A stretch of DNA of 25,319 nucleotides from a virus (taxonomy: Duplodnaviria > Heunggongvirae > Uroviricota > Caudoviricetes): IMG/VR virus record IMGVR_UViG_2648501787_000014; one strand, 5' to 3'. Positions 4,030-25,319 of the stretch are shown here, piece after piece. The first letter of the stretch is position 1, and every line of letters begins with the position of its first letter. Under the pieces are notes generated by a model. That model had not been told where the DNA came from. It saw only the letters and a program-made list of their open reading frames with translations, and searched no databases. A program made the translations under genes and the position numbers.

Positions 4030-4053
4030 GCCTCGCATTTGCGGGGCTTTTTT
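4030..4053 (+). terminator. Intrinsic terminator downstream of the lysis cassette
   Basis: Stem gcctcgc (4030-4036) / gcggggc (4041-4047), loop attt, then TTTTTT (4048-4053). Confidence 0.6.
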
Positions 4054-4199
4054 ACATCTGCAGTAAACCGCGCATCGCAGCGCGTAACAATCCCGAGTCT
4101 TTCAGAAAGCTGAGCCTGAGAACTGCCGTATATGGTGGCGACCATCTCGGGGCGGCTTTTCTGTGCGAACAGGCTCATCTTTCTAAAAGGTAAGACGCT

Positions 4200-5321: not shown

Positions 5322-5322
5322 T

Positions 5323-5502: not shown

Positions 5503-5525
5503 AATAAAAATTAAGTGAGATGAAT

Positions 5526-5948: not shown

Positions 5949-7360
5949 CCTCGATTAATCCTATCTTTGAACCGTTCATTGAGGCGCATCGCTACAAAGT
6001 CGCCAAAGGCGGTCGAGGTAGCGGTAAATCATGGGCAATTGCGAGGCTGCTTGTTGAGGCGGCACGTCGGCAGCCTGTGCGTATTCTTTGCGCTCGTGAA
6101 CTGCAAAACAGTATCAGCGATTCGGTAATCCGGTTGCTTGAAGATACCATCGAGCGTGAAGGGTATTCGGCTGAGTTTGAAATTCAGCGTTCCATGATTC
6201 GTCATCTCGGAACGAATGCTGAGTTCATGTTCTACGGCATCAAAAACAACCCGACGAAGATTAAATCGCTAGAAGGTATTGATATCTGCTGGGTGGAGGA
6301 AGCGGAAGCGGTAACGAAGGAATCATGGGATATCCTGATACCAACCATCCGCAAGCCGTTTTCCGAAATATGGGTGAGCTTTAACCCTAAGAACATCCTC
6401 GACGATACCTATCAGCGATTCGTTGTAAATCCTCCCGATGATATTTGCCTGCTGACGGTGAACTACACCGACAACCCGCACTTTCCTGAAGTCCTCCGTC
6501 TGGAGATGGAAGAGTGTAAACGCAGAAATCCGACACTGTATCGTCACATCTGGCTTGGTGAGCCAGTGAGCGCAAGTGATATGGCAATCATCAAACGTGA
6601 ATGGCTTGAAGCTGCAACCGATGCGCACAAGAAACTCGGATGGAAAGCGAAAGGCGCTGTTGTTTCTGCACATGACCCGTCAGATACAGGGCCAGATGCT
6701 AAAGGTTACGCATCGCGCCACGGTTCGGTAGTTAAGCGCATTGCCGAAGGTCTGCTGATGGACATCAACGATGGTGCTGACTGGGCTACTTCGCTGGCGA
6801 TTGAAGACGGCGCTGACCACTACCTGTGGGATGGTGATGGTGTTGGTGCCGGGCTACGCAGACAGACAACGGAAGCGTTCTCCGGTAAGAAAATCACCGC
6901 CACGATGTTCAAGGGTAGCGAATCGCCATTCGATGAAGATGCGCCTTACCAGGCCGGAGCATGGGCTGATGAAGTCGTGCAGGGCGACAACGTTCGCACT
7001 ATTGGCGATGTATTCCGCAATAAGCGAGCGCAATTCTATTACGCGCTGGCTGACAGGCTGTATCTGACATATCGGGCGGTTGTTCACGGTGAGTATGCAG
7101 ACCCCGACGACATGCTGAGTTTCGACAAAGAAGCGATAGGCGAGAAGATGCTGGAGAAGCTGTTTGCAGAACTGACGCAGATCCAGCGCAAATTCAATAA
7201 CAACGGGAAGCTGGAGCTTATGACTAAGGTCGAAATGAAGCAGAAGCTCGGTATTCCATCTCCTAACCTGGCTGATGCGCTGATGATGTGTATGCATTGC
7301 CCGGAGTCGGCTGCGCAACCCGACTATTCCAGTTACTCAATTCCTTGTGGTGTAGGTTGA
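5945..7360 (+). CDS. Terminase large subunit
   Basis: 471 aa; Walker A motif KGGRGSGKS near the N-terminus; nuclease-like C-terminal half; ATGA overlap with the small subunit. Confidence 0.9.
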   Translation: MTSINPIFEPFIEAHRYKVAKGGRGSGKSWAIARLLVEAARRQPVRILCARELQNSISDSVIRLLEDTIEREGYSAEFEIQRSMIRHLGTNAEFMFYGIKNNPTKIKSLEGIDICWVEEAEAVTKESWDILIPTIRKPFSEIWVSFNPKNILDDTYQRFVVNPPDDICLLTVNYTDNPHFPEVLRLEMEECKRRNPTLYRHIWLGEPVSASDMAIIKREWLEAATDAHKKLGWKAKGAVVSAHDPSDTGPDAKGYASRHGSVVKRIAEGLLMDINDGADWATSLAIEDGADHYLWDGDGVGAGLRRQTTEAFSGKKITATMFKGSESPFDEDAPYQAGAWADEVVQGDNVRTIGDVFRNKRAQFYYALADRLYLTYRAVVHGEYADPDDMLSFDKEAIGEKMLEKLFAELTQIQRKFNNNGKLELMTKVEMKQKLGIPSPNLADALMMCMHCPESAAQPDYSSYSIPCGVG

Positions 7361-7361
7361 T

Positions 7362-9560
7362 ATGGCAGAAAAAAAGATGACTGACTGGCATCGCAAGGTG
7401 CTGTGCAACTTTGATAATGCCTGGTCAGCAACGCAGGATATGCGTGAGCAGATTATTGAGGCTCAACGTTTCGTCCGGGTATCCGGCGCACAGTGGGAAG
7501 GCAGCACAAACGCTGGTTACTCATTTGATGAAGGCAGGTTTGAGCATTATCCGCGCTTTGAACTGAATAAGATTGCCCGTGAATGTGATCGCATCATTGG
7601 CGAGTATCGACAGAATCGCATCAGCGTTAAATTCAGGCCGAAGGACGATAAGGCATCGGAAGCGTTAGCCGAAAAGATGAATGGTAAATTCCGCGCTGAC
7701 TATCAGGAAACATCCGGTGGTGAAGCGTGTGATAACGCATTTGATGATGCTGTAACGGGCGGATTCGGTTGTTTCCGCATGTGTGCCGATTACGAAGATG
7801 AAATGGATCCGAGTAACGAGCAGCGACGCATCAGCCTTCTTCCTGTTTACGACCCAGCGACATGCGTCTTCTTCGATCAGGACAGCAAGCAATATGACCG
7901 CTCTGATGCTATGTGGGCTATGGAAATGTTCTCCATGACGCCCAAAGCGTTCGAGGCTGAATACCCTGATTCCACCGCGGCAAGCCTTTCTCGTGATGAC
8001 ACTGGCACTCAATATGACTGGTCAACGCCCGATGCCATCTATGTTGGACGCTACTACGAAGTTCGCATAGAGAAGGTGAAGCTCACGGCGTGGCGCAACC
8101 CTGTTAGCGGAGAAACGGCAATCTATGATGAAGAGCAAATCAAAGATATTGTCGACGAGCTGACCGATGGCGCATTCGAACTGATTGGTGAGCGGACAGT
8201 GAAGAAACGCAGAGTTTATTGCGGTCTTCTGTCTGGCGCTGAATGGCTGGAAGAACCGAAGCGTATTCCGGGCGAACATATTCCTCTCATCCCGGTATAT
8301 GGGCGTCGCTCATTTGTTGATAATCAGGAGCGAATCGAAGGCCACGCAGCAAAAGCGATGGATGCACAGCGTCTTGAGAACCTGATGGTTTCCATGATTG
8401 CAGATAACGCTACTCAGGCTGGCGGTGATGGCATTCCTATCGTGGATGTTGATTTCATTCCCGGTCCATTAATGAATCACTGGGCAGAGAGGAATAAGAA
8501 AAGACCTGCAGTTCTCCCCATGACCAGCAAGAAGGACAAAAACGGAACGGTCATTTCAGAGGCTCAGGTTGCTGGCTGGACACCTCCGACACAAATGCCT
8601 CCTGCTCTTGCCGGGCTATTGCAGTACACCGGAACGGCTATTCAGCAAATTACAGGTGCGTCGCAGCTTGAGAACATGCCGAGCAACGTCGCCACCGATA
8701 CCGTTGATAGCATTTTTAACCGGATGGATACGCAGTCCTATATCTACATGGACAACATGGCTAAATCCATGCGCCGCGCTGGCGTCGTGTGGCTTTCTAT
8801 GGCGCGTGAGGTCTATGGCAGTGATACGCCGATGCGTATTGTTAATGAGGACGGCAGCGATGACGTGGCGCTGATGACTGGTGAAGTGGTTGACCGTCAG
8901 ACAGGGCAGGTTATCGCGCTTAACGACCTTTCGCAGGGTAACTATGAAGTGACTGTCGATGTTGGTCAGTCGTTCGCTACTCGCCGTGATGCAACGGTTA
9001 AGTCGTTACTTTCCATGCTGGCACTTATCCCGCCCGGAACGCCGAAACACGACCTTGTATCGTCGATGATCCTCGACAATATGGACGGCGAAGGGATGGA
9101 CGACCTTAAAGAATACAACCGCAATCAGTTGCTTCTGTCTGGAGTTATCAAGCCGAGAACGCCAGAAGAACAGCAGATGGTTGAGCAGGCGAAACAACAA
9201 CAGGCCAGTCAGCCAGATCCGGCTATGGTTGCTGCGCAAGGTCAGCTTCTTGCTGGTCAGGCTGAATTGCAGAAAGCGCAGAACGAGCAGGCAGCCATTC
9301 AGGTTAAAGCATTCCAGGCACAGACGGATGCTCAGGTTGCTGCGGCAAATGTTGTGAAAATCCTCGCATCTGCCGATAGCCAGCAAAAATCTGATATCCG
9401 TGAGGCGCTGAAACTGCTCGGACAGTTCCAGCAACAGCAAGGAGATAATGCCCGTGCTGATGCAGAGCTTGTCCTGAAAAGTCAGGCACAGGGCCATGCG
9501 CAGCGCATGGACATCAGCAGCATCCTGCAAAAATCAACTCAGCAACAACCACAGCAGTAA
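7362..9560 (+). CDS. Portal protein (P22 gp1-like)
   Basis: 732 aa; internal and C-terminal Gln/Ala-rich barrel segments resemble P22 portal (e.g. GEHIPLIPVYG, PDPAMVAAQGQLLAGQAELQKAQN). Confidence 0.9.
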   Translation: MAEKKMTDWHRKVLCNFDNAWSATQDMREQIIEAQRFVRVSGAQWEGSTNAGYSFDEGRFEHYPRFELNKIARECDRIIGEYRQNRISVKFRPKDDKASEALAEKMNGKFRADYQETSGGEACDNAFDDAVTGGFGCFRMCADYEDEMDPSNEQRRISLLPVYDPATCVFFDQDSKQYDRSDAMWAMEMFSMTPKAFEAEYPDSTAASLSRDDTGTQYDWSTPDAIYVGRYYEVRIEKVKLTAWRNPVSGETAIYDEEQIKDIVDELTDGAFELIGERTVKKRRVYCGLLSGAEWLEEPKRIPGEHIPLIPVYGRRSFVDNQERIEGHAAKAMDAQRLENLMVSMIADNATQAGGDGIPIVDVDFIPGPLMNHWAERNKKRPAVLPMTSKKDKNGTVISEAQVAGWTPPTQMPPALAGLLQYTGTAIQQITGASQLENMPSNVATDTVDSIFNRMDTQSYIYMDNMAKSMRRAGVVWLSMAREVYGSDTPMRIVNEDGSDDVALMTGEVVDRQTGQVIALNDLSQGNYEVTVDVGQSFATRRDATVKSLLSMLALIPPGTPKHDLVSSMILDNMDGEGMDDLKEYNRNQLLLSGVIKPRTPEEQQMVEQAKQQQASQPDPAMVAAQGQLLAGQAELQKAQNEQAAIQVKAFQAQTDAQVAAANVVKILASADSQQKSDIREALKLLGQFQQQQGDNARADAELVLKSQAQGHAQRMDISSILQKSTQQQPQQ

Positions 9561-9650
9561 TTAACCCATAACGTGCAATGGCTGTCTTTATGAGGCCTGG
9601 CACCCTATTGCCTTCCGATGGGCTGAACATCGAGTAAACAGGGGTAACAA

Positions 9651-10544
9651 ATGGACCAGATGGCAGAAAACACACCAGAAGTTGAAATCGAAACCGACGC
9701 GTCAGAGCAGATTCCTGATGATGTCGAACTGGCTGAAGAAGTCGAAACAGAAGATGGCAGTGAGTCCTCTGGCAATGATGCAGAGGAAGCTACTGAAACT
9801 GATGACGACGAATCAGAACAGGAATTCTACTTTGGTGACGAAAAGCTGGATTCGCCAACCAGCGAAGATAGCGCAGAGCATGGACTGGTAAAACACCTGC
9901 GCAAGACGATTAAAGAGAAAGACCGCGAGCTGAAAGAGCTGATGCGTCAGTCTCAGAAACCCGTCGAGCAGCAGCCGGTAATCACTCAACCACCGCGAAT
10001 GCCAAAACTGGATGATGAGGACATCGGTTTCGATGAAGAAATCTACCAGCAACGCATGGCTAAGTGGGCAGAGGATAACGGCAAGTACCAGCAACAGGAG
10101 ATGGCTCGCAAGCAGAAGGAGCAGGAGCTTCAGGCTGCCTATCAAGAGCGATTATCCAAATATCAGCAACGTGTTAAGGCTCTCAAAGTTCCTGGCTATC
10201 AGGAAGCTGAGCAGGCCGTACTCGAGGAAATCCCCATCGAGACACAAAACGCGATCCTGTTTGAGTCAGAGAAGCCGGAAATCGTTGTTCTGGCACTCGG
10301 TCGCAACGCTGAACTGCGCAAGCAACTGGCAGAAGCTACCAACCCCGTAGCAATTGGTCGTCTGCTGGAACGTATCGAATCGAAGGCCAGAATCATGCCA
10401 AAAGCAAAAACCACGGCAGCCACAACCCCGACAGTTAAGGGGAGCAACGGCGCAGTAATCAATAACCTCGACAAACTGAAAGCCAAGGCGCTGGAAACTG
10501 GTGACTGGACGCCGTATTTCGCCGCTAAAAAGGCAAAAAAATAA
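9651..10544 (+). CDS. Scaffolding protein (P22 gp8-like)
   Basis: 297 aa, acidic N-terminus, coiled-coil character, basic C-terminal tail; sits between portal and coat. Confidence 0.8.
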   Translation: MDQMAENTPEVEIETDASEQIPDDVELAEEVETEDGSESSGNDAEEATETDDDESEQEFYFGDEKLDSPTSEDSAEHGLVKHLRKTIKEKDRELKELMRQSQKPVEQQPVITQPPRMPKLDDEDIGFDEEIYQQRMAKWAEDNGKYQQQEMARKQKEQELQAAYQERLSKYQQRVKALKVPGYQEAEQAVLEEIPIETQNAILFESEKPEIVVLALGRNAELRKQLAEATNPVAIGRLLERIESKARIMPKAKTTAATTPTVKGSNGAVINNLDKLKAKALETGDWTPYFAAKKAKK

Positions 10545-10562
10545 CCTATCGGAGCATTAAGC

Positions 10563-11816
10563 ATGGCTAACCAATTAGCAAAAGACCTTGAAATCATGTT
10601 CGAAAACTACGTTGAAGGCTTTGAGGCCGCCTGCGTAGTTTCCCGTAACGCTAAAAAATTCCGTCCCGGTGATACAGCAATGCAGCGAGCAGGTGATGTT
10701 CTGTATCGTCCGCAGCATTACCACATGAACATTGAGGAGGGCCTAGACCTCAGCGGCAAAACGCCAACAGCACTGGTTCAGCGCCTTGTTCCTTCTGTGT
10801 TCAAGGAGCCGAAAAACATTCTGTACACTCTGGATGCGCGTGAAATGCGTGACCCGGAACATAAAACTGAAGCTGGTCGCGCCGCAGGTATGCGCCTTGC
10901 TGCACAGATTGACTCGGACCTGATTTCCATGGTCACGCAGCGTGCTACTAACGTGATCACGATGGCTGACTCAACCACAGGCACACAGGGCCGTGATTTG
11001 TGGAACTGTGCGGCAGGTATTGATGCCACCATGACGGCGATTGGTGTACCGCAGGGTATCAATCGTCGCTCTTTCTGGAACCCCTTCAACCACAAAGACC
11101 TTGCTGGCGAGCTTGGTCACCGTGCCTATGCTCAGGGCGCAACCCTGACAGCATACGAAAAAGCGCAGATCCCTCCGGTTGCTTCCTTTGATAGCTACAA
11201 GACCGATATTTCTGGTCGATTACCGAAAGGAAGCGCTGAATCCTTGACAGTATCAGGCCAACCTGAACACAAGGTTGAAGCGAAAGATTCAAATGGTATG
11301 CCAGTTGATAACCGACAGGGGACTATTACGGTATCTGCATCTGGCTTGCAGGTTGGTGATGCGTTCACCATTGCCGGTGTGAATTCCGTACACCAGATCA
11401 CAAAAGATACCACCGGGCAACCGCAGGTATTCCGTGTTCTGGCTGTTAGCGGAACTACCGTAACAATCTCTCCAAAGATTCTCCCTGTTGAAAATACCGA
11501 TGTTGCGAGTCGTCCATATGCAAACGTCGATGCCAAACCGGCAGAATCAGCAGCAATCACCATTCTCAACAAGAACGCAGCACCTGCTAACCTGTTCTGG
11601 GCTGATGGTTCTGTTGAGCTGATGTACGGCAAACTGGCGTTCCCGACTGGTCAGGGTCCACAGGTAATGACGGCAACCACCGAGCAGGGCGCTACGCTGA
11701 TCATGTCTTACTCCTTCGACCACATCAAAGGCGTAACCACTGCGCGTTTCACCACTCTGTACGGTTGCTCTGTACTGGTTCCTGAATATACGGGCATCGT
11801 TATTGCCGGGCAGTAA
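10563..11816 (+). CDS. Major capsid (coat) protein (P22 gp5-like)
   Basis: 417 aa; shared motifs with P22 coat (e.g. FWADGSVELM vs FWADDAIRIV); followed by a strong terminator. Confidence 0.85.
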   Translation: MANQLAKDLEIMFENYVEGFEAACVVSRNAKKFRPGDTAMQRAGDVLYRPQHYHMNIEEGLDLSGKTPTALVQRLVPSVFKEPKNILYTLDAREMRDPEHKTEAGRAAGMRLAAQIDSDLISMVTQRATNVITMADSTTGTQGRDLWNCAAGIDATMTAIGVPQGINRRSFWNPFNHKDLAGELGHRAYAQGATLTAYEKAQIPPVASFDSYKTDISGRLPKGSAESLTVSGQPEHKVEAKDSNGMPVDNRQGTITVSASGLQVGDAFTIAGVNSVHQITKDTTGQPQVFRVLAVSGTTVTISPKILPVENTDVASRPYANVDAKPAESAAITILNKNAAPANLFWADGSVELMYGKLAFPTGQGPQVMTATTEQGATLIMSYSFDHIKGVTTARFTTLYGCSVLVPEYTGIVIAGQ

Positions 11817-11822
11817 TTTAGG

Positions 11823-11846
11823 TGGGGCTTCGGCCCCATTTTTATT
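11823..11846 (+). terminator. Intrinsic terminator after the coat gene
   Basis: tGGGGC-ttcg-GCCCCa hairpin followed by TTTTTaTT. Confidence 0.65.
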
Positions 11847-11857
11847 GGGAGAAGACA

Positions 11858-12046
11858 ATGGCACGAACAATGCTCTATAAGCCGGGCAACATGATCACCT
11901 GTGGTCAGTTTGCTGTCGATTACATCATTGTTGATGACGAAGAAGTTAAATCTCACCTGAAAAAAGGCTGGGTAAAAACTCCTGAAGAAACCGCAACGAA
12001 GCATAAAGTGGCTAAGGCGGAAGAAGATGGCGAAAACGAAGGGTGA
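11858..12046 (+). CDS. Hypothetical small protein (62 aa)
   Basis: ATG at 11858 with gggaga RBS; 3' end overlaps the gp4 start; no family recognised. Confidence 0.35.
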   Translation: MARTMLYKPGNMITCGQFAVDYIIVDDEEVKSHLKKGWVKTPEETATKHKVAKAEEDGENEG

Positions 12047-12488
12047 TCTCGTTCTTAAGGCTTTACGAAAAGCCGGGCTGTATTCCAATGCCACGTTGAC
12101 AGATGCTGACCCTCAGGCAATTGAAGATGCCATTAATGACCTCGAAGACATGATGGCAGCATGGCAGGCTAAAGGTATCGAGCTTGGATATCAGTTTGCT
12201 GATACAGAAAACGGCATCATGCCGTTACCTGACGATGATTCAGGTATCCCTGCGTGGGCAAATGATGGCGTCGCTTTGAAGCTCGCTGTGCAAGTGTGCA
12301 TGGATAACGTCATTCAGCCGTCAGATGCTCTCCTTACCGCTGCTGACAGCGCATATCAGACAATCTGCATCGCTTTAACCAAAATACCACCACTTGAGCG
12401 GCGAAATGACATGCCTCGCGGTAGTGGTAACAAAAGCGCGTTTACGTGGAATCGGTTTTACATCGAGAAAGATGATCCAAGTACGTGA
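12027..12488 (+). CDS. Head-to-tail adaptor / tail accessory factor (P22 gp4-like)
   Basis: 153 aa; N-terminus KTKGDLVLKALRKAGLYSNATLTDADPQAIEDAINDLEDMMAAW resembles P22 gp4. Confidence 0.85.
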   Translation: MAKTKGDLVLKALRKAGLYSNATLTDADPQAIEDAINDLEDMMAAWQAKGIELGYQFADTENGIMPLPDDDSGIPAWANDGVALKLAVQVCMDNVIQPSDALLTAADSAYQTICIALTKIPPLERRNDMPRGSGNKSAFTWNRFYIEKDDPST

Positions 12489-12497
12489 GGTGAATAA

Positions 12498-12602
12498 ATG
12501 CCGATTCAGCAACTTCCGCTTATGAAAGGTGTCGGCAAAGACTTTCGAAACGCCGACTATATCGACTATCTGCCAGTGAATATGCTGGCAATTTTGATAT
12601 AA
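12498..12602 (+). pseudogene. Orphaned 5' fragment of gene 10 (34 codons; first 31 are gp10-like), cut off by the homing-endonuclease insertion
   Basis: Encodes [31 protein letters not shown] then ILI-stop; the same N-terminal peptide reappears, recoded, at the start of the intact gene 10 at 13171. Confidence 0.7.
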
Positions 12603-12638
12603 TAAGTACATGAAAAATCGAAACTTTAAGGAGTAGAT

Positions 12639-13223
12639 ATGCTTTCTGAGAATGCTAAAGATATACCTGGATTTGAAGGTGTTTATGCCGTAACAGAAGA
12701 TGGCAGGGTATATTCTCACTCACGTGTTGTTAAGGCTGCGCATGGCAGCACGCAACTCAGAAAGGGGCGCTGGTTAAAGCCTAAAATCAATCAGGGAAGG
12801 GTGCTTTATAATATCGGAGCAAAATGGACTTTTGCCCATCGAATCGTTGCAATGACATTCCTGCCAAATCCTGAAAACAAGCCTCAGGTAAATCATATTG
12901 ATGGCAATCCACTCAATAATAACGTCAATAATCTTGAGTGGTGCACTCAAAGCGAAAACATCAAACATGCATACGCCACCGGATTAAAGAAACCAATCAA
13001 GTTTTTCGGAACCAAGCACCCAAAACACAAGTTGAGTGATGACGATGTTCTTGCAATCAAGTCATCAAAAGAAAGCTTGTCAGTAATTGCGGCTAAGTAC
13101 GGGATATCTAAGACCTGGGCAAGTAGGCTAAAGCGTGATGCTAACTGGGTTCATATAAAGGTTGATTCCAATGGCAATACAACAACTACCACTAATGAAG
13201 GGATTGGGGAAAAGTGCGGTTAA
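12639..13223 (+). CDS. HNH homing endonuclease (NUMOD4 + HNH_3-type, with C-terminal HTH)
   Basis: IPGFEGVYAVTEDGRVYS (NUMOD4-like) and HRIVAMTF...VNHIDGNPLNNNVNNLEWCTQSEN (HNH) motifs; aaggag RBS; inserted within gene 10. Confidence 0.85.
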   Translation: MLSENAKDIPGFEGVYAVTEDGRVYSHSRVVKAAHGSTQLRKGRWLKPKINQGRVLYNIGAKWTFAHRIVAMTFLPNPENKPQVNHIDGNPLNNNVNNLEWCTQSENIKHAYATGLKKPIKFFGTKHPKHKLSDDDVLAIKSSKESLSVIAAKYGISKTWASRLKRDANWVHIKVDSNGNTTTTTNEGIGEKCG

Positions 13224-14589
13224 TGCTGATTATATAGACCAACTTCCAGTCAATCTTTTAGCTACGCCCAAGGAGGTGTTGAATTCATCGGGATATCTTC
13301 GCTCATTCCCGGGCATTGCCAAACGTTCTGATGTGAACGGCGTATCGCGAGGCGTCGAGTACAACATGGCGCAGAGTGCTGTTTATCGCGTGTGTGGTGG
13401 CAAGCTGTACAAAGGAGAAAGTGAAGTTGGTGATGTTGCCGGAAGTGGTCGCGTATCAATGGCACATGGTCGGACATCACAGGCGGTAGGCGTTAATGGT
13501 CAACTGGTCGAATACCGCTATGATGGCACGGTTAAAACCGTCTCAAACTGGCCTACGGACAGCGGATTCACGCAGTATGAGTTAGGTTCGGTCCGTGACA
13601 TTACGCGTTTACGTGGGCGTTATGCGTGGTCAAAAGACGGTACTGATTCATGGTTTATCACTGACCTTGAAGACGAATCGCATCCTGACCGCTACAGCGC
13701 ACAATATCGGGCAGAATCGCAGCCGGACGGTATCATCGGCATCGGAACATGGCGAGATTTCATCGTCTGCTTTGGTTCATCGACGATTGAATATTTTTCC
13801 CTGACTGGTGCAACCACCGTTGGTGCCGCTTTGTATGTCGCACAGCCATCACTAATGGTGCAAAAAGGAATCGCCGGGACTTACTGCAAAACGCCATTCT
13901 CTGATTCATATGCGTTCATCAGCAATCCGGCAACAGGTGCGCCGTCTGTGTACATCATCGGCTCCGGTCAGGTGTCACCAATCGCCAGTGCGAGCATTGA
14001 GAAAATCCTCCGCTCCTACACTGCTGATGAACTGGCTGATGGCGTGATGGAATCGTTGCGGTTTGATGCTCATGAGTTGCTGATTATCCATCTTCCGCGT
14101 CACGTCCTCGTGTACGACGCATCTTCAAGCGCCAATGGTCCGCAATGGTGTGTGCTTAAAACAGGCCTGTATGACGATGTGTACCGCGCTATCGACTTCA
14201 TTTACGAAGGCAATCAGATAACGTGCGGCGATAAGCTGGAATCGGTGACCGGGAAATTGCAGTTCGATATCAGCAGTCAGTATGGGCTTCAACAGGAACA
14301 CCTTCTGTTTACTCCGTTGTTCAAAGCGGATAACGCCAGATGCTTCGATCTGGAGGTGGAATCGTCCACTGGCGTAGCTCAGTACGCCGACCGCCTGTTC
14401 CTCTCTGCGACCACTGACGGCATAAATTACGGTCGTGAGCAGATGATTGAGCAGAATGAACCGTTCGTTTACGACAAACGCGTTTTGTGGAAGCGAGTCG
14501 GGCGCATCAGGAAAAATGTCGGCTTCAAATTGCGCGTTATCACGAAGTCACCTGTCACTCTGTCTGGCTGCCAGATAAGGATTGAGTAA
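13171..14589 (+). CDS. Tail hub / packaged-DNA stabilisation protein (P22 gp10-like), intact copy
   Basis: 472 aa from ATG 13171 (track ORF begins at a TTG at 13162); N-terminus [14 protein letters not shown]...; synteny gp4-gp10-gp26. Confidence 0.85.
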
Positions 14590-15290
14590 TGGCTGATTCG
14601 AATCTCAACACCCCTGTTATTGTGCAGGCGACGCGGCTCGATACATCAATCCTTCCACGCAATATATTCAGCCAGTCTTACCTGCTGTATGTCATTAATC
14701 AGGGGGCTGATGTCGGCGCAATTGCCGGGAAGGCAAATCAGGCTGGTCAGGGCGCTTACGATGCTCAGGTGAAAAACGATGAACAGGACGTCGAACTGGC
14801 TGATCACGACGCAAGAATCACCGCAAACACAAAAGCGATAAATCTACTTGAGGTCAGGTTAACAACTGCCGAAGGGAAGATAGTCGTACTGCGTAGCGAT
14901 GTTGATTACTTGCTGGATGAGGTTATCGATATTCAGGCGCATCTGGTCACTGTTGACCAAAGACTGGATGACGTAGAAAACGATGTCTCTGGCATTAAGA
15001 GTGATTACGTATCGAAAACCGTAACCGAATTGCAGTCTCTTGAGTCACCGCTGGATGTAAAAACATCATATTCAGTTGATGGAATTCAGGTTGTTGGAGC
15101 AAGAAATACCGGATGGACTGCAGCCACAGGTACGCCACTTCTTGGCTCATTCAACGCTAACCAGTCATACACTGTCGGCACTACGTACACACAATCCGAA
15201 GTCGCAGCTCTCGCTACAGGTTTGCAGCAGGCGCGGCAGCGTATTCTGGCGCTTGAAACGGCACTTAGATTACATGGGCTGATTGACTGA
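14589..15290 (+). CDS. Tail needle protein (P22 gp26-like)
   Basis: 233 aa; N-terminus [36 protein letters not shown] and heptad coiled-coil core; TAATG overlap with gene 10. Confidence 0.85.
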
Positions 15291-15745
15291 TGATTACATT
15301 CAAACCAACGCGAAACATCGACCTGATAGAAGCAGTCGGAAATCACCCTGACATTATCGCCGGGAGCAACAACGGCGATGGATACGACTACAAACCTGAA
15401 TGCCGTTACTTTGAGGTGAGCGTGCACGGGCAGTTCGGCGGCATTGTTTACTATCAGGAGATTCAGCCGCTGACATTCGATTGCCACGCCATGTACCTGC
15501 CAGAGGTTCGTGGATTCAGCAAGGAAATCGGTCTGGCGTTCTGGCGATACATTCTGACTAACACCACCGTTCAGTGCGTCACATCGTTCGCTGCACGCAA
15601 ATTCCGCCACGGGCAGATGTACTGCGCAATGATTGGCCTTAAGCGTGTAGGAACCATCAAGAAATACTTCAAAGGCGTGGATGACGTGACTTTTTACAGT
15701 GCTACACGCGAAGAACTAATCGAATTCCTGAATCACGGGAGATAG
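15290..15745 (+). CDS. gp14-like internal virion / ejection-associated protein
   Basis: 151 aa; assigned mainly by synteny (needle-14-7-20-16 order of P22-like phages). Confidence 0.55.
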   Translation: MITFKPTRNIDLIEAVGNHPDIIAGSNNGDGYDYKPECRYFEVSVHGQFGGIVYYQEIQPLTFDCHAMYLPEVRGFSKEIGLAFWRYILTNTTVQCVTSFAARKFRHGQMYCAMIGLKRVGTIKKYFKGVDDVTFYSATREELIEFLNHGR

Positions 15746-15747
15746 CC

Positions 15748-16440
15748 ATGTTATATGCATTTAAGCTGGGCAGAAAACTGCGCGGCGAGGAACCTTATTG
15801 CCATGAAAAAGGCGGGAAAGGTGGCAGCTCTGATAAAAGCGCAAAGTATGCAGCAGAAGCTCAGAAGTATGCCGCCGACCTGCAAAATCAGCAGTTCAAC
15901 ACCATCATGAACAACCTGAAACCGTTTACTCCTCTGGCTGAGAAGTATGTCGGCAGCCTCGAGAACTTATCGTCTCTGGAGGGGCAAGGTCAGGCGCTTA
16001 ACCAGTATTACAACTCTCAGCAGTATAAAGACCTTGCAGGTCAGGCTCGCTATCAGAGTCTGGCTGCAGCGGAAGCAACAGGTGGATTGGGTTCCACCGC
16101 AACCAGTAATCAGTTAGCAACAATCGCACCAACGCTTGGTCAGCAATGGCTATCTGGTCAGATGAACAACTACCAGAATCTGGCAAATGTTGGTCTTGGC
16201 GCACTGCAAGGTCAGGCAAACGCCGGGCAGACATATGCCAACAACATGAGTCAGATTTCTCAGCAAAGTGCGGCTCTTGCAGCGGCAAATGCCAACAGAC
16301 CATCAGCAATGCAATCTGCTATTGGCGGAGGTGCGTCTGGTGCTATTGCTGGGGCTGGACTTGCGAAATTAATTGGTTCATCCACTCCGTGGGGGGCTGC
16401 GATCGGCGGCGGTCTTGGTCTGCTTGGCTCGTTGTTTTAA
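15748..16440 (+). CDS. Ejection protein (P22 gp7-like)
   Basis: 230 aa, Gln/Ala-rich with Gly-rich hydrophobic C-terminus; size and position match gp7. Confidence 0.7.
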   Translation: MLYAFKLGRKLRGEEPYCHEKGGKGGSSDKSAKYAAEAQKYAADLQNQQFNTIMNNLKPFTPLAEKYVGSLENLSSLEGQGQALNQYYNSQQYKDLAGQARYQSLAAAEATGGLGSTATSNQLATIAPTLGQQWLSGQMNNYQNLANVGLGALQGQANAGQTYANNMSQISQQSAALAAANANRPSAMQSAIGGGASGAIAGAGLAKLIGSSTPWGAAIGGGLGLLGSLF

Positions 16441-16449
16441 GGGGTAATC

Positions 16450-17865
16450 ATGGCTACGTGGCAACATGGTATTAATTCTGGTGGTTTTCTGGCTGGCATC
16501 GGTACGCAAAATGAGAATGCGCCAAAGGCAAGCGACATTAACGCAACGCTTGGTCTGATCCGCGAAAACAATGAGTTGGCTCGCTCAGGTGCAAATAACG
16601 TTGGTCTGACCGCGTTACGTGGTCTGGCTGGAGTTGCTGATATTTACAATCAGGAACAGCAACAGAAAGCGATTAGTGCGTTCAATAAGGTTCACGCTGA
16701 TGCATGGGCTTCTGGTGATCCATCGGGACTATTTAAGTTTGCCCAGGAAAATCCAGCGTTTGTTGCACAGGCACAACAGGCGTTTTCTGGTCTTAATGAT
16801 CAGCAACGCAACGATATGGGCGATTTAGCCATGAGGGCTAACGTCGCTCTTTCTCAGGGACCGGAAGCCTACAGTAAATTCATTACTGACAACAAGGACA
16901 GGTTAAATCGCGTTGGTGCTAATGCTGACTGGATGATTCAGACAGGTATCCAGAATCCAGAGCAGCTATCACACATGCTGACTACTATGTCTCTCGGTGC
17001 GCTTGGACCAGAAAAGGCGTTTGCTGTTCAGGATAAGATGGCTGGTCGTGAAATTGACCGAGGCAGGCTGGCAGAGACAATCCGCAGCAATCAGGCTGGT
17101 GAAGCACTTCAGGCGAGAGGGCAAAACCTTTCCTATCAGTCAGCAATGACTGGGCACAATATCGCAGCACAACGCTTGGCTCTGGATCAGCAAGAGTTCG
17201 GGTTTAAGATGCAGCAAGCGCAGGAAAAGGCTCAGCAGTTGATTAGTGAAGCACCTAAGCTGTCAGTAAACATGGAAAAAGGCATCGAGACGGCTGTAAA
17301 CAATGCCACAGCATCATCAAACTCAGCCAATTCTATGAGTGCGCTTGCTCAACAGTTCAGAGCAGAAAAACCAACGACAGGTTTGTTCGGTAACGCACAG
17401 AACATGTTCGCAAAACTTACCGGAAGCGATACGACATTGCGTGATTTGCGCATCCGCCAAAATGCCCTTGTTAACAGTCAGGTTCTTAAATTCCTACCTC
17501 CCGGCCCAGCAACGGATAAAGACGTTGAGATCGTTCGGCAGGGTGCGCCAACTGACATGGATAACCCTGAGACGGTCGCAAGATGGCTTGATGCAATGGC
17601 AAACCTTGAGCGACGAAACGCGCAGTTTAATGAGTTTAAAGCTGAGTGGATGAGCGCGAATGGCAATCCTGGACAATCGCGTAATGGCGGTCAGATATTG
17701 GGGTTGGATGTTAAAAAAGGTGAATCATTGGGGAGTGCCGTTAAGCGGTATATGTCATTGAATACTGACGCAGCGCCAGCACAAGATTCGACACCTTCAG
17801 GAGAACCACGGAATCAGGTTGGATCATATACCTCAAAATCAGGCATTCAATTTACGGTGGAATGA
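16450..17865 (+). CDS. Ejection protein (P22 gp20-like)
   Basis: 471 aa; size and position match gp20. Confidence 0.75.
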
Positions 17866-19703
17866 TGAAAGTAACTGCAAACGGTAAGACATTTACCTTC
17901 CCTGATGGTACGAGCACGGAAGATATTGGAGCCGCCATTGATGATTATTTTGCTGGTCAGGTTGTTCAGCAACAAACAGTTTATCAGGCCAATAATGCAC
18001 CAGTACGTGAAGAACCATCATTGATGCAACAAGCTGGCGATTGGCTCACTGGTGGTCAAAGTGCAGGGCAAATTGCAGAACAGGCTGGTCGTGGTCTGGT
18101 AAACATACCATTTGACGTATTGCAGGGTGGCGCAAGTCTGATTAATGCAATCAGTCAGGGGCTTGGTGGGCCAAAAGTTTTGGATGATGTTTATCGTCCA
18201 GTAGACAAACCGACAGACCCATACGCACAAGCCGGTGAAACAATTGGTGGGTATTTAGTTCCAGGAGTTGGAACGGCAGGAAGCATGGCTATTGGATCGC
18301 TGGCAGAGGCCGCAAATCAGAAAGGCGATTTCGCACAAAATGCAGCTAAAAATGCCGGAGTTAACCTTGCCGCTCAGGGTGTTCTTTCCGCAGCAGCAAA
18401 GGGAATAGGGCGTGGAATAACGGCTATAAAAGGTGATATTGCGCCAGAAGTGGCGAAGAAAATTGCCACATCAGAATCGATGGGCGTGACACCAATGACA
18501 TCTGATGTTATCCCGCCGAAAAATGCTTTCACTCGCGGCCTTACTCAGGATGCCGAGGGGGCTTTGCTCGGGACGGGCTCAAAGCGAGCAGAGCAATATG
18601 CAACGCGGAGTAAGCTGGTAAGCAATTATTTTGACCGTTTTGGTGAGTACAACCCTGATGATGTGGTGAAATCTCTGACCACCACGTTAAGGGGGCGGAA
18701 GGATGCCGCTGGCGCTGTTATCAATGACGTCACCAATAAAATGGGTAATGCCGCAGTTGATACCACAAATACCATGAATGCTCTGAATACAGCGATCGCA
18801 AGACAGGAACGGCTTGGGACGTCTGCCAATCAAAGCCTGCTTACATCCTTGCGTAACCTACGTGAAGAATTAGCAAACCCTGCAACTGATTTGGATGTTA
18901 CGTTTGATCTCTTGCGTCAGCACAGAACAGCATTTAGATCTAATGTTCAGGGAGATGCTATGGTCTTCCCCAACCAGGCAAAAGCAGCTACCAATATGGT
19001 AGAGAATGCAATGTCAAAAGACCTTCGTAACGCAGTTGCTAAAAACCTCGGTGCATCAGACGCAGCAAAATACCTTAAAGCAAATTCCGATTATGCAAAC
19101 GTTTATAATAAGGTGCTTAATAAAAACATTGCCAACAAGCTCAACAAGGCAAGCAGTGAAGCCAGTCCTGAACTTATAAATACCGTTGTATTAAGCAGAA
19201 AACCATCTGACGTGAAACGAATCTGGAGCGCACTGGATGATAAGGGGAAAGATGCTATGCGTGCAGCTTACGTCAGCAAAATAGCGGAAAAGGCCGGGGA
19301 CTCTCCAGCCAAGTTCATCACTGAAGTTAATAAGCTGAAATCTCAGTCAGGCGGTGAAATTTACAACACTATTTTTTCTGGAAAGCACATGAAAGAGCTT
19401 GATGCTCTTCATGAAGTTCTACAGCAAACAGCAAGGTCAGACACCGCAAATGTAGTAACTCAGACGGGGCAATCGCAAGCCAACAGGATAAGGACGATTG
19501 GCGCAACTGCGACCCTTGGCGTATCAATGGGGCTTGAGGCTGGTTTTGGTGCAATGATGCGCTTGTATGAGTCCAAAGCAGCAAGGAATATGCTTCTTCG
19601 TTTGGCAAACACCAAAGCAGGAACACCAGCCTATGAAAGAGCGATAAATAACGCTGCGAATGCCATCAGACCGCTGTTTGCTACTGAGGCAACACAGCAG
19701 TAA
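17862..19703 (+). CDS. Ejection protein (P22 gp16-like)
   Basis: 613 aa; overlaps the gp20 stop; size and position match gp16. Confidence 0.75.
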
Positions 19704-19727: not shown

Positions 19728-20117
19728 CTAACATTTTCTTTTTACTTTTCCAACAAAAGCTTTGGTTGAATCCATATTTCCATAACCGGAAATGGTTTTT
19801 GACATTAAAACTGTTCCAGTAGGATGTATTACCCATGAGTCGATAACGCGTTGAGTTTCGCCATTCGCGCCGATTCCTATGATGGAGTTTTTAGACAATG
19901 CTTTGTAAGCCATGCCGCCCGCATCTGTCCCAGAATATGTGATGCTGGCATCTTCACCGTTTGTCTTAATGATGAATGTTCCACTAAAACCATCTTCTTC
20001 CGGATGGAAATTATTTCGTTCTGAATAGCTTATTCCGCGCATATCTCCAACGACCCAGCACTCTGCTGTAGCCCCAAAAGATATGAATAAGAACATAGCA
20101 GTAAGAAATTGCTTCAC
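19728..20117 (-). CDS. Secreted (periplasmic) protein of unknown function; probable moron
   Basis: GTG start preceded by the strong SD taaggaggt (5-nt spacing); signal peptide VKQFLTAMFLFISFGATA then ECW...; opposite strand to the virion genes. The track ORF extends to an upstream ATG at 20198, which lacks an SD. Confidence 0.5.
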   Translation of the reverse strand: MKQFLTAMFLFISFGATAECWVVGDMRGISYSERNNFHPEEDGFSGTFIIKTNGEDASITYSGTDAGGMAYKALSKNSIIGIGANGETQRVIDSWVIHPTGTVLMSKTISGYGNMDSTKAFVGKVKRKC

Positions 20118-20234
20118 GCCAACCTCCTTAGTTTTGAGCAGGATACCATGAAAAAAGTAAACATCTTTTGCGTACTTCACATTTGAATGGTTTGTCATTA
20201 GGATGTTTCCGGTTTTTTAAATATGGAAATTGAT

Positions 20235-20654
20235 ATGAAGAGGATTATTGGCGTCGTTGCTGGCGCTATATTGTTATCTGGGTGCGCAACTATTGTTGGT
20301 GACGAAACGCAGCTTGTGCAAGTGAACAGCAATCCTTCCGGTGCGAGCTTTAAGGTAAAAGACGAATCAGGCGTGATTGTTGCGCAAGGTAAGACCCCGC
20401 AAGGAGTAACTCTTGCCAAGTCAGATGGTAGTTATTTTGGCAAAAAGAGCTACCAGATCACTATGGAGAAGGATGGGTACGAACCAGTTACCCTACCAAT
20501 CAAAGCCAATGCTAATGGTTGGTATATTGGTGGAAATCTTGTGTTTGGTGGGTTAATTGGTTGGCTTGCTGTAGATCCATTTAATGGTGGGATGTATACC
20601 TTGAAGCCTAAAGAGGCAAATGCATCCCTTATACCGTCAACAAAGCAAGACTAA
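20235..20654 (+). CDS. Lipoprotein of unknown function; candidate superinfection-exclusion or lysogenic-conversion protein
   Basis: Signal peptide with lipobox MKRIIGVVAGAILLSGC; Gly-rich amphipathic C-terminus; divergent from the secreted-protein gene; followed by a terminator. Start may instead be the ATG at 20223. Confidence 0.6.
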   Translation: MKRIIGVVAGAILLSGCATIVGDETQLVQVNSNPSGASFKVKDESGVIVAQGKTPQGVTLAKSDGSYFGKKSYQITMEKDGYEPVTLPIKANANGWYIGGNLVFGGLIGWLAVDPFNGGMYTLKPKEANASLIPSTKQD

Positions 20655-20661: not shown

Positions 20662-20686
20662 AACCCACCATCAGGTGGGTTTTTTG
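20662..20686. terminator. Bidirectional intrinsic terminator between the lipoprotein gene and mnt
   Basis: CCCACC-atca-GGTGGG hairpin flanked by an A-run on one side and TTTTTT on the other; convergent gene ends on both sides. Confidence 0.65.
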
Positions 20687-20922
20687 TACAAATCCTTCAG
20701 CGTATCAAACACCATCTTCTTAACAAGTTCGGACTGCTCATCAGCGATGCGTTCCGCATCGTCTCGATAGCCTGAAATTTTGGATTGCCTTGATACAGCA
20801 TCAGTCACTATCTGAACTAATTCTGAATTAATAGAGCGGCCATTGGATTTGGCTCGCTGTTTTAGTTTTTCCTTTAATTCGTAAGGTAGCCGCAGATTAA
20901 ATTGCGGGTCATCTCTTCCCAT
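20671..20922 (-). CDS. mnt: Mnt repressor (Arc/MetJ ribbon-helix-helix family)
   Basis: 83 aa, MGRDDPQFNLRLPYELKEKLKQRAKSNGRSINSELVQIV...ELVKKMVFDTLKDLYKK, closely resembling P22 Mnt. Confidence 0.85.
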   Translation of the reverse strand: MGRDDPQFNLRLPYELKEKLKQRAKSNGRSINSELVQIVTDAVSRQSKISGYRDDAERIADEQSELVKKMVFDTLKDLYKKPT

Positions 20923-21347: not shown

Positions 21348-22754
21348 ATGCCTGATATAACTCCAAATGTTGTAATTGGGATGCCTTCTCAACTCTTCAC
21401 TATGGCTCGTTCTTTTAAAGCCGTAGCTAATGGCAAAATTTATATCGGTAAAATTGACACTGACCCGGTAAATCCTGAAAACCAGATTCAGGTTTATGTG
21501 GAGAACGAAGACGGCTCTCACGTTCCTGTATCGCAACCAATCATCATTAACGCTGCTGGTTACCCGGTATATAACGGACAGATTGCCAAGTTCGTAACTG
21601 TGCAAGGCCATTCTATGGCTGTATATGATGCGTATGGTGCGCAGCAGTTCTATTTTCCTAATGTGCTGAAGTATGACCCAGAACAATTTAAAGATACACT
21701 TCATTCTGCGAGCGGAGCGGATAATGTTGGATATAGGGGTTATACTGTTAGTGAGTATCTTTCACACACCGCATTGAGTTTTGGTAACTTAAACGATTGT
21801 CTGTCTCATGACAAATACAAGATAGGAGATAAAGTATTTGTACATGGATATAATTATCCATCAGATGGAGGAATGGCTTCATTTGAGGTTGTGTCATCAG
21901 ATGAACCAGTTGGAATAAAAACTTACGATGGTAAGTTTAAGCTAAAGCGAACATCTGGGCATAATTATCTTGAGTTAATAATAAAAAATGGTGCGACGCC
22001 AAAGATAATTGCCCATAGAGGATGGGCAGGAATAACGCCAAATGAATATCAGGGAGCATTGACTGCGCCTGTTTATTTCGTTCCAGAAAATACAAGGGCA
22101 TCAATTAGATTTTGTGCTGAAAGAGGAGCTTTTGGTGTTGAAGGGGATACCAAAATAACATTAGACGGAGTTCCTGTCATATTCCATGATGAGACAGTTG
22201 ATAGAACTACAAATGGTACTGGTGCCGTATCAACATTTACTTTTTTAGAGCTAAAGGCCCTCGATGCTGGATCGTATGTTTCTGGTATTTATGCAGATGA
22301 GAAAATACTCAATTATGATGAATGGATTAGAGAATGCAAGCGTCGCGGAGTAATGCCATTTGTTGAGTGGTCTGCGCCAATGAGTGTCACTCAAGCTGAT
22401 AATTTTCTTGAAACTATAAATAAATATTATGGCACAAAGCCGACGAATGTCTTTGTTTATTCAACATATCCTGCCGTTCTTGAACTGTTGCGTTCAAAAA
22501 ATGCTTATATTGGACTTGGTGTTATACCATCTTACGGTGTCGCACCAACTACAGAACAATTGGAGCTGGCGTATAAGCTTGGCAACTGTGGTATATCTCT
22601 ATCAGGTGGAATAATTACGAATGCCGCTGTTGTAAATTCAGTTAAGAAATATGGTTTGTTGTTGATTTATGCAATTGCTAACACCCCGGCAAGAATTGAT
22701 AATTGCATATCTGCAGGCGTTGATATAATGATTACTGATTGCTATAGAGGGTAA
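21348..22754 (+). CDS. Tailspike: P22-type N-terminal head-binding domain fused to a GDPD (glycerophosphodiester phosphodiesterase) domain
   Basis: N-terminal ~110 aa ([38 protein letters not shown]...[13 protein letters not shown]...[10 protein letters not shown]) match the P22 gp9 head-binding domain. C-terminal half carries GDPD motifs: [32 protein letters not shown]. Confidence 0.8.
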
Positions 22755-22755: not shown

Positions 22756-23541
22756 ATGAATATAAAAACATATAGACAAATTCATGGTGGTATGAGGTCG
22801 TTTGTTACCACAAGTTTATTCCCTGTTGGGGCGAATAAATTTGACAAATCCGATGCAAGGAAGTCTGTTCTCAGTAAGACATCATCAGATAGTGCGGCGC
22901 TGGAAGTGATGGATTTAGGATGGCTGGCTGCTGGTACATGTATTTCATTTTGCTGTGATATAAAAATAAATACTCAAATGTCTGGTGCACCGTCAATAAG
23001 CATCGAGTCGCGTAATGGCGCAAGGCTAAGTGATGGAAGGAAAATAGTAAACATAGGCACGACTAACTCTAAAGAATGGGAGACAGTGCGTTGTGATTGG
23101 ATTGTGTCTGAGTTTGATAACTGGATAACTCTGTCATATGGGGCTTCTACACCTGTATTGGGACAGTTTGAGTTCAGAAATCCAAGAATTTCTATCACGA
23201 ATGATCAGGCTAGATTGCCTATAAATTTCTCTCTACTCAGATCAGGTAATGTTTGGCGTGTTGATACTGGCACATTTATTTACAATGGAGCTGTATTAGT
23301 ATCAGCAAACGGTGACTCAATAGAGGTTAGTTGGCCATATGTGAACAATATTAGATCACCAATAGTTCACACAACTATAGATACTGGTTTTAGTCTGTTA
23401 TCTGCTGGATGTATATCATGCGGTCCACATTCAGTAAGTAATTCAGGATGCAAAATTCGATTAATTAAACCTGATGGCTCATTTGTAACAGATGTTACAA
23501 ATGGAACGACACTGAGAATTCATGTAAGCGTTAATTATTAA
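22756..23541 (+). CDS. Hypothetical protein (261 aa) coupled to the tailspike; possible receptor-binding accessory
   Basis: Starts 2 nt after the tailspike stop; same AT-rich composition; Ser/Thr/Asn/Gly-rich, beta-like sequence; no TM segment or known motif recognised. Confidence 0.5.
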   Translation: MNIKTYRQIHGGMRSFVTTSLFPVGANKFDKSDARKSVLSKTSSDSAALEVMDLGWLAAGTCISFCCDIKINTQMSGAPSISIESRNGARLSDGRKIVNIGTTNSKEWETVRCDWIVSEFDNWITLSYGASTPVLGQFEFRNPRISITNDQARLPINFSLLRSGNVWRVDTGTFIYNGAVLVSANGDSIEVSWPYVNNIRSPIVHTTIDTGFSLLSAGCISCGPHSVSNSGCKIRLIKPDGSFVTDVTNGTTLRIHVSVNY

Positions 23542-23801
23542 TTCAACATGTGCGCACGTACCCCTATGAACACACGAGTCTTTGAGTTGTGTGATTAATG
23601 AGACACACAAAGCTTTGCACTTGATTGCAAGGCTTTGTGCTCTTCTGTGGATGTGTGGCTACATGTTTGAAGATCGTTGTGTCGTATTTGTGACATACAC
23701 ATGACAACATCATGCATCAACTTTCTGTTTGTGCCATCAACTATAGCTTAGTGAATGCGGTTAATGCTTGCTAAAACAGATAGTTATGATTGGTGCTACA
23801 G

Positions 23802-23847
23802 ATTCGTAATGCGAAGGTCGTAGGTTCGACTCCTATTATCGGCACCA
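23802..23847 (+). other. Partial tRNA-Thr (thrW-like) 3' end: prophage att core (attR)
   Basis: ATTCGTAATGCGAAGGTCGTAGGTTCGACTCCTATTATCGGCACCA is the anticodon-loop-to-CCA portion of enterobacterial tRNA-Thr; the upstream sequence cannot supply the 5' acceptor strand or D-arm. Confidence 0.75.
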
Positions 23848-24001: not shown

Positions 24002-24340
24002 GTGAAACTCAATGCCCGTCAAATAGACACTGCCAAGCCAAAAGAGAAGGCTTACAAGTTGGCTGATGGTGGTGGTCTGTACCTCCTGGTAAAACCTGGT
24101 GGAGGAGAATATTGGCGTCTCAAGTATCGTGTAGCTGGTAAAGAGAAGCTGTTAGCACTAGGTGTGTATCCTGAGGTCACCTTAGCTGATGCTCCTGCAA
24201 AACTTGAAGAAGCTAAAAGAGGTATCTCTGGGGGAATCGATCTGATGGAAGTGAAGCGCGAGGAAAAGATTGCCCGGGAAACGCAGTTAAACAACACCTT
24301 CAAAGATATTGCCCTTGAGTGGCACAGTAACAAATTATAA
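24002..24340 (+). pseudogene. Truncated P4-type tyrosine integrase (N-terminal arm-binding domain only)
   Basis: GTG-start ORF VKLNARQIDTAKPKEKAYKLADGGGLYLLVKPGGGEYWRLKYR...LALGVYPEVTLADA is a typical P4-family integrase N-terminus but stops after 112 aa, with no catalytic domain. Confidence 0.7.
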
Positions 24341-24770: not shown

Positions 24771-24810
24771 AACGTCAATTAACATCAATTAACATCAATT
24801 AACATTAAGG
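24771..24810. repeat. Four tandem copies of a 10-bp unit (aacRtcaatt)
   Basis: aacgtcaatt aacatcaatt aacatcaatt aacattaagg; overlaps the last codons and 3' flank of the MarR-like gene. Confidence 0.7.
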
Positions 24811-25289
24811 TTTGATAATAATTTTTTGTTGGCGAGTTCAAATGTTTTCATTTCATCATCTGATAGCCCGCTCCAGATTTTCTTTAGCATTACATTTTGA
24901 GTGTTTATTAGTTTTTGAGCAAGTGTAACTCCGTCAGGGGTTAAGCAAATACTTTTGCTTCGACGATCGTTTTTATTATTAATTCTTTTGGCAATATTCT
25001 TTTTTTCTAATTTGTCTATGATGTGTGTGATGTTTGTTTTGGAGAATTGTAACTCCTTGTAAATATCAGAAGGGGACTGACAATAATCATCAGACATATA
25101 TAATGAAACTAACACCATAAATGTTGAAGTGTTTATTCTATACTCGCTCAATTCATTTTCTATAATACTCTGGATTTTGTCATTTACTCTAATATATAAG
25201 TGTATTAACAGACTCTCCTGAGCCGGGTATGCCGGATTTTTGATTTTTTTGTAGTTTGTTATAGTTTTTAATAAATCTATATTATTCAT
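24795..25289 (-). CDS. MarR-family winged-helix transcriptional regulator
   Basis: MarR-type wHTH segment SPSDIYKELQFSKTNITHIIDKLEKKNIAKRINNKNDRRSKSICLTPDG; very AT-rich. Start taken at the internal Met (MNNIDLL, GGTGG RBS); the track ORF runs to the window edge at 25319. Confidence 0.65.
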   Translation of the reverse strand: MNNIDLLKTITNYKKIKNPAYPAQESLLIHLYIRVNDKIQSIIENELSEYRINTSTFMVLVSLYMSDDYCQSPSDIYKELQFSKTNITHIIDKLEKKNIAKRINNKNDRRSKSICLTPDGVTLAQKLINTQNVMLKKIWSGLSDDEMKTFELANKKLLSNLNVN

Positions 25290-25319
25290 AATTCCACCAC
25301 ACGGCAAAAGAAAACTCAT

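Follow-up and report, generated by a model that had tools for sequence, protein, structure and literature searches.

The gene behind a prophage tailspike that ends in a predicted glycerophosphodiester phosphodiesterase domain almost certainly encodes a helper dedicated to this tailspike, or a second subunit of it

ORF261, the last gene of a P22-like prophage in the 25,319-nt stretch of DNA analysed here (hereafter the window; IMG/VR record IMGVR_UViG_2648501787_000014), almost certainly encodes a dedicated helper or a second subunit of the tailspike specified by the preceding gene, and not a lysogenic-conversion protein, because members of its family are always encoded immediately after a tail protein with a terminal glycerophosphodiester phosphodiesterase (GDPD) domain. 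The reading that we prefer, to which we assign a probability of roughly 0.45, is that ORF261 is an accessory component of the virion, CBM-like in character, which attaches to the GDPD domain and contributes to recognition of a glycerol-phosphate O-antigen or capsule and/or to oligomeric order. In this view, a GDPD-ended tail protein and a partner of ~260 aa make up a mobile receptor module of two genes, and ORF261 would be the second of these. From the tailspike gene to the att site, the window contains the following features.

21348-21686, plus strand: N-terminal head-binding (anchor) domain of the tailspike, Sf6/P22 type (Pfam Head_binding, residues 1-113, E = 5.3e-66)
21687-22754, plus strand: linker and C-terminal GDPD domain of the tailspike (PF03009, residues 241-464, E = 1.3e-23)
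22747-22750, plus strand: Shine-Dalgarno sequence GAGG for ORF261, within the final tailspike codons, read directly from the sequence
22756-23541, plus strand: ORF261, ATG start, 261 aa; members of its family are stand-alone proteins of ~260 aa
23606-23639, plus strand: terminator-like hairpin with a 14-bp stem and a T-rich tail to 23649, closing the tailspike-ORF261 unit
23802-23847, plus strand: 3' fragment of tRNA-Thr (thrW), the attR core, which matches unoccupied loci; CCA is read at 23845-23847

ORF261 is present as it had been described in a preliminary description of this DNA, i.e. as a 261-aa reading frame right behind the tailspike stop. The tailspike TAA codon (22752-22754) is followed by one spacer base and then by the ATG of ORF261 at 22756, and the position of the Shine-Dalgarno sequence implies that translation of ORF261 would be coupled to that of the tailspike. 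When ORF261 is compared with its closest diverged homologue (P0002 in locus L001, 69% aa identity), pN is 0.21 and pS, which is saturated, is 0.755, while the differences at the three codon positions number 63, 50, and 152. Because pN is lower than pS in this comparison and homologues occur in unrelated phages, sequence comparison confirms that ORF261 is no chance ORF but a genuine gene, and that it is subject to purifying selection. The protein, with a calculated pI of 8.7, has no predicted transmembrane segment (the maximum 19-residue hydropathy, KD19, is 1.39) and no hydrophobic N-terminal leader that is visible when the sequence is read by eye.

The tailspike (21348-22754, 468 aa) is a chimera in which an Sf6/P22 head-binding domain is fused to a C-terminal GDPD. 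Its anchor is near-identical to residues 1-118 of Sf6 gp14 (7sg7) and is common to many Escherichia coli P22-like prophages. The remainder of the protein scores 84.8 bits against PF03009, for which the cut-off is 23.6, which places it in the GDPD family. It also matches the GDPD of PDB entry 2pz0 with E = 1.6e-16 and displays the catalytic motifs HRG, PENT, ExD, and HD, and the polypeptide ends four residues past the domain. A P22-type tailspike combines a head-binding domain with a right-handed β-helix endoglycosidase; here the first is present, the β-helix is absent, and GDPD stands in its stead. It had been noted that 468 aa is short for a spike of the P22 type. This is correct as to size, but the cause, replacement of the P22 β-helix by the GDPD TIM barrel, had been missed, and it is the presence of this domain in the tailspike that explains the pairing with ORF261. 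As judged from sequence, the GDPD would be the receptor-destroying module of the cassette, a TIM barrel in place of the P22 β-helix. The literature searched yielded no account of a P22-like phage with a phosphodiesterase tailspike.

GDPD and ORF261 lie in one foreign cassette. Both are AT-rich relative to the structural genes at 1-19703: the GC content is 0.383 in the linker and GDPD part of the tailspike, 0.384 in ORF261, and 0.491 in the structural genes, and the corresponding GC3 values are 0.25, 0.275, and 0.39. A megablast search of 5,426 complete E. coli genomes showed homology that stops at ~21690, just past the head-binding domain, and returns at ~23600, just past ORF261; the intervening GDPD and ORF261 segment is found in none of these 5,426 complete RefSeq genomes. 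It follows from the two homology breaks that the foreign AT-rich cassette comprises the GDPD module and ORF261 and nothing else. On the right, homology to other thrW-integrated P22-like prophages returns at 23599-23628, and the ~200 nt from the terminator to the att core (23599-23801) are common to these prophages, so that the right cassette junction lies at the terminator hairpin. From ~23802 (query position 261) on, unoccupied E. coli thrW loci, in which tRNA-Thr is annotated at this place, match with 99.9% identity, and ARAGORN did not identify a complete tRNA, which is what an attR fragment should give. In agreement with the preliminary description, no further prophage gene thus lies between ORF261 and attR; the terminator-like hairpin separates ORF261 from the thrW fragment.

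Several other genes flank the cassette. In the host DNA beyond att, where GC content is 0.30-0.40, there are a truncated P4-type integrase remnant (24002-24340, 112 aa, Arm DNA-binding domain only) and a gene for a MarR-family regulator (24795-25319, minus strand). The tailspike gene is closely preceded by an Arc/Mnt-type ribbon-helix-helix repressor gene (20671-20922, minus strand), as in P22 immI, the equivalent of which in a second P22-like prophage (L004, see below) matches Pfam Arc and Repressor_Mnt. Between the gp16-like injection protein gene and this mnt-like repressor gene are two small genes (19728-20198, minus strand, and 20223-20654, plus strand; GC 0.39), one encoding a product of 156 aa with a hydrophobic N-terminal stretch and the other a product of 143 aa with a lipobox-like LLSGC. 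Neither has a confident family match or a PADLOC match, and they may be morons in the immI-equivalent region.

To define the family of ORF261, we used sequence and profile searches. ORF261 has no match in Pfam, PHROG, NCBIfam, or PADLOC (E ≤ 0.1 in the last case), nor was there a tblastn match in the 50,697 phage records of INPHARED, and profile searches against PDB sequences returned noise only. A profile search (hmmsearch) of 1.84 billion representative proteins identified only nine members, all of them stand-alone proteins of 256-269 aa, with E values from 1e-104 to 1.5e-24 for eight representatives and of 8.5e-4 for P0026; it revealed no protein in which a GDPD and its partner are fused. 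In a collection of 5.8 billion proteins, the search of which is word-indexed and recovers few members even with profile queries, we found two 90% clusters, both from E. coli, named "hypothetical protein" and distributed over >200 contigs. Scanning with motif patterns yielded no confirmed relative among genome and metagenome contigs and a single locus, L002, among viral contigs. The nine representatives can be aligned end to end, and they share a conserved N-terminal F-P-x-G-x-N segment and the motif G-x-[FY]-E-F-R-N-P-R (residues 136-144 of ORF261).

A second branch emerged from a search downstream of GDPD tail genes in isolated phages, which returned a 263-aa hypothetical protein (QXG07654) in Erwinia phage Snitter and a 265-aa ORF in Escherichia phage DTL, both virulent Drexlerviridae. 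This branch, to which a later search added four further members, is linked to the family by hhalign with a probability of 87% (E = 3.7e-6) over 191 colinear columns that include both motifs. In the RefSeq and GenBank records of DTL, the ORF is unannotated and sits in an 845-nt gap behind the GDPD tail-fibre gene.

L006 4722-5519, corresponding to NC_047893.1 37769-38563 (minus strand in NC_047893.1): DTL homologue of ORF261, unannotated ORF

A 307-aa ORF behind the GDPD tail fibre of Aeromonas phage pAEv1810 was also considered, and showed no detectable relationship to the family. By sequence comparison, the ORF261 family is thus a new, rare, and unnamed family of phage proteins.

Genome context ties this family to GDPD. 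In all 15 distinct loci (the window, L001, L002, L003, DTL, Snitter, P0018-P0025, and P0030), a GDPD-ended tail protein is encoded directly upstream of the ORF261 homologue, with gaps of -4 to +16 nt. The upstream gene has a purine-rich end in 15 of 15 pairs, as at the Shine-Dalgarno sequence of ORF261, and the GDPD catalytic motifs are intact in every full-length upstream tail protein. What precedes the GDPD is different from locus to locus. The N-terminal anchors include P22 head-binding domains, TSP1/Gp66-type domains, and T1-type fibre N-termini, the spike of L002 (a siphovirus-like IMG/VR contig) has a Tail_spike_N anchor, and the protein upstream of the homologue in L003 (a low-GC contig) has a coiled coil. 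What follows the pair varies as well and may be an integrase gene or att, lysis genes, or SSB and recombination genes; in some temperate siphovirus-like prophages the homologue is at a distance from att, flanked by the tail gene on one side and lysis genes on the other. The view that tailspike and ORF261 form one coupled AT-rich cassette is therefore borne out, both by their matching GC content and by the recurrence of the pair in 15 loci with different anchors. There is no gene at the position of the homologue in Drexlerviridae AKS96 and XT34, the tail fibre of which is without GDPD, and no ORF261-like neighbour next to the GDPD tail lysins of Gram-positive phages.

Some of these loci display additional features. 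A segment of ~80 aa before the GDPD (residues ~150-235 of the window tailspike, ending ...KFKLKR) is conserved in the window and in L002-type spikes (L002 617-2020) and is absent from the DTL and Snitter fibres, and the GDPD of the window subgroup has an insertion of ~16 aa between the HRG and ENT motifs. In L001, a gene with an Acyl_transf_3 domain (1180-2331, minus strand) lies directly after the ORF261 homologue on the opposite strand and is a candidate O-antigen acetyltransferase, i.e. a conversion gene; beyond it are genes for an S24 peptidase (UmuD-like) and a sensor kinase. L004 and L005, from an E. coli assembly (GCA_013074365.1, WERF01000002.1), are two P22-like prophage copies with the identical GDPD and ORF261 pair, ~38.6 kb apart, in what looks like a tandem double lysogen adjoining yfdC (argW region). 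The same receptor cassette, present in the thrW prophage of the window and in these argW prophages, is hence associated with different integration sites.

We then compared the divergence of the two proteins. In a mirror-tree analysis of 13 pairs, the identities of the GDPD domains and of their partners were strongly correlated (Mantel r = 0.91), with none of 5000 permutations giving a value as high, and mean identity across pairs was 27% for the partner and 37% for the GDPD, indicating that the partner evolves somewhat faster. This correlated divergence shows that the unit of inheritance and exchange is GDPD plus partner. The two co-diverge without shuffling, whereas the anchors in front of them are swapped across podovirus-like and siphovirus-like, temperate and virulent phages. 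A programmed frameshift that would fuse GDPD and partner was considered and rejected because the reading frame of the partner relative to the upstream stop differs between loci (-4 to +16 nt).

Such a pattern bears on the main rival to our preferred reading, namely that ORF261 is a dedicated assembly chaperone that the GDPD-ended tail protein requires for folding or oligomerisation and that afterwards leaves it, or remains in loose association as Mu Tfa does. Co-inheritance and co-divergence are expected equally of a chaperone and of a virion subunit. An adjacent downstream position, translational coupling, and co-transfer and co-divergence with the C-terminal domain of a tail protein together make up the classical arrangement of fibre tip and tfa, examples of which are lambda stf-tfa, Mu S-U, and P2 H-G, and the absence of the gene where the GDPD is absent (AKS96 and XT34) is in keeping with it. 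Features of the protein itself argue the other way. ORF261 has no sequence match to the Tfa or gp38 families in Pfam and PHROGs, it is predicted to be all-β, and it is larger than typical Tfa proteins, which have about 175-200 aa. Moreover, GDPD TIM barrels, as cellular enzymes, normally fold unaided, and the GDPD tail lysins of Gram-positive phages exist without such a partner. A chaperone accounts less well than a virion subunit for the size of ORF261, for its all-β prediction, and for the CBM hints described next, and we consider it the less likely of the two.

The fold of ORF261 was predicted with AlphaFold2 from alignments of two and three sequences, which gave models of low confidence (pLDDT 41.8 and 51.9). 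At these pLDDT values, the models agree in being all-β, with two β-sandwich-like halves and a first stretch of ~45 residues that is unstructured in the monomer. These N-terminal 45 residues, for which the single-chain models predict no structure, are conserved. A comparison with hhalign gave no sign that one half is an internal duplicate of the other (probability 0.6%). Matches to the low-confidence ORF261 fold in BFVD are mostly tail fibres and receptor-binding proteins; since the models are of low confidence, such matches are hints that may reflect a generic β-sandwich. At the sequence level, residues 26-114 of P0018 are colinear with positions 25-115 of CBM_4_9 (PF02018), with E = 0.0028 and a score of 18.5 bits that is below the gathering score of 25.9 bits. 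P0018 is the only one of 17 family members tested to give this sub-threshold match, and ORF261 gives none even at E ≤ 10. Together, models and profile match weakly support the notion that the body of ORF261 may be a CBM-like carbohydrate-binding β-sandwich.

The remote-homology search and structure prediction that had been proposed for this gene thus led to no known family, but they did bring out a new one, together with all-β models of low confidence and the sub-threshold CBM_4_9 match in P0018. A second receptor-binding protein, a carbohydrate-binding component, and a chaperone had all been put forward as possible roles; each is still live, and the weak fold and Pfam evidence leans to a carbohydrate-binding β-sandwich.

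On the accessory-subunit reading that we prefer, ORF261 would bind the GDPD domain, perhaps by its conserved N-terminal 45 residues, and would ride on the virion. β-helix spikes have a long binding groove and a C-terminus that trimerises, both of which a GDPD TIM barrel would lack, and ORF261 could lend affinity, specificity, or oligomeric order to the enzyme, with its CBM-like body binding a surface glycan that contains glycerol-phosphate (O-antigen or capsule). The GDPD would cut phosphodiester links in this glycan, and the phage would thereby reach the outer membrane.

Two further explanations give ORF261 a role in the producing cell or the lysogen. It might be an intracellular inhibitor or mask that holds the GDPD inactive in the producing cell or until attachment, which we regard as improbable. 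All that speaks for it is the strict pairing with an active-looking enzyme and a tight coupling that suggests equimolar synthesis, whereas cells tolerate cytoplasmic GDPDs, for example UgpQ in E. coli, without harm, Gram-positive phages encode GDPD tail proteins without a partner, ORF261 has no resemblance to known immunity proteins, and the CBM-like signals would be left unexplained. The least probable explanation, implied as an alternative by the att-proximal position, is that ORF261 is a moron for lysogenic conversion or superinfection exclusion that the prophage expresses and that lies beside the tailspike by chance: the interval between tailspike and att is indeed the site of gtr and oac in P22-like phages, an Acyl_transf_3 gene adjoins the homologue in L001, and there is a weak promoter-like match at 22675-22703, but homologues occur in virulent Drexlerviridae (DTL and Snitter) and, in siphovirus-like prophages, between tail and lysis genes far from att, promoter-like matches around ORF261 are fewer than in shuffled sequence (8 versus 12.6), and ORF261, with neither transmembrane segment nor leader on reading, neither glycosyl- nor acyl-transferase domain, and no match to a PADLOC defence model, is unlike conversion genes such as gtrABC and oac, which encode membrane transferases and are confined to temperate phages.

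We tentatively propose, as a possibility somewhat short of even odds, that GDPD and partner represent an undescribed class of two-component receptor-binding module, so far in phages of Enterobacteria. In this class, an obligate lectin-like subunit would dock on the enzyme and supply glycan recognition and/or oligomerisation, a tail phosphodiesterase would depolymerise O-antigen or capsule linked by glycerol-phosphate, and the pair would serve as a plug-in cassette across podoviruses and siphoviruses. Neither partnered GDPD tailspikes in Gram-negative phages nor the DTL ORF are described in the literature searched. Known tailspikes of enterobacterial phages, including P22-like ones, are β-helix glycosidases, lyases, or esterases; a spike that is a phosphodiesterase and has a small obligate partner would, if confirmed, be a different receptor-binding design, and it would indicate that the targets are O-antigens or capsules in which glycerol-phosphate is present. 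Knowledge of the pair would help in predicting host range from the sequences of prophages and provide a name for a "hypothetical" family, and engineered phages, tailocins, and depolymerases could make use of it as a portable enzyme-plus-lectin cassette of compact size. The pair is open to direct tests in DTL and Snitter, both of which are isolated phages.

Known systems offer partial parallels. Like lambda Tfa, Mu U, P2 G, and gp38 of T4, T2, and S16, ORF261 is encoded by a separate gene right after a receptor-binding gene, and like the Tfa and gp38 genes it is specific to the upstream C-terminal module, with which it is exchanged horizontally. It is unrelated in sequence to Tfa (Caudo_TAP) and gp38, no member of its family matches any Pfam, PHROG, or NCBIfam entry, and its partner is not a fibre tip but an enzymatic TIM-barrel domain (GDPD), ORF261 itself being predicted all-β and ~260 aa in size. 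The putative fold can be likened to β-jelly-roll CBMs (CBM4/9/16/22) and to the lectin-like C-termini of CBA120 TSP4, KP32gp38, and phiAB6. Unlike these domains, ORF261 is free-standing and encoded in trans, its family match is below the Pfam gathering score, and its fold comes from low-confidence models. The combination of an O-antigen-modifying enzyme with a second binding protein recalls the G7C esterase gp63.1 and gp66, which form a branched adsorption device. The G7C proteins are both large spikes with their own anchors, whereas ORF261 is small, has no recognisable anchor domain, and would be attached only putatively.

The catalytic family is known from phages of Gram-positive bacteria. 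A baseplate glycerophosphodiesterase of Lactobacillus phage Ld17 is named in a title in the reference list of PMC6116005. Like the tail GDPDs of these phages (Ld17, and the tail lysins of Staphylococcus Kayvirus and Enterococcus phages), the GDPD of the window tailspike is a tail-borne member of this catalytic family that cuts glycerol-phosphate polymers, an activity that in our case is predicted. The GDPDs of Gram-positive phages target teichoic acids and are embedded in larger tail lysins with no ORF261-like neighbour, whereas in the system of the window the protein terminates with the GDPD and is followed by a dedicated partner, and the hosts identified are Enterobacteria.
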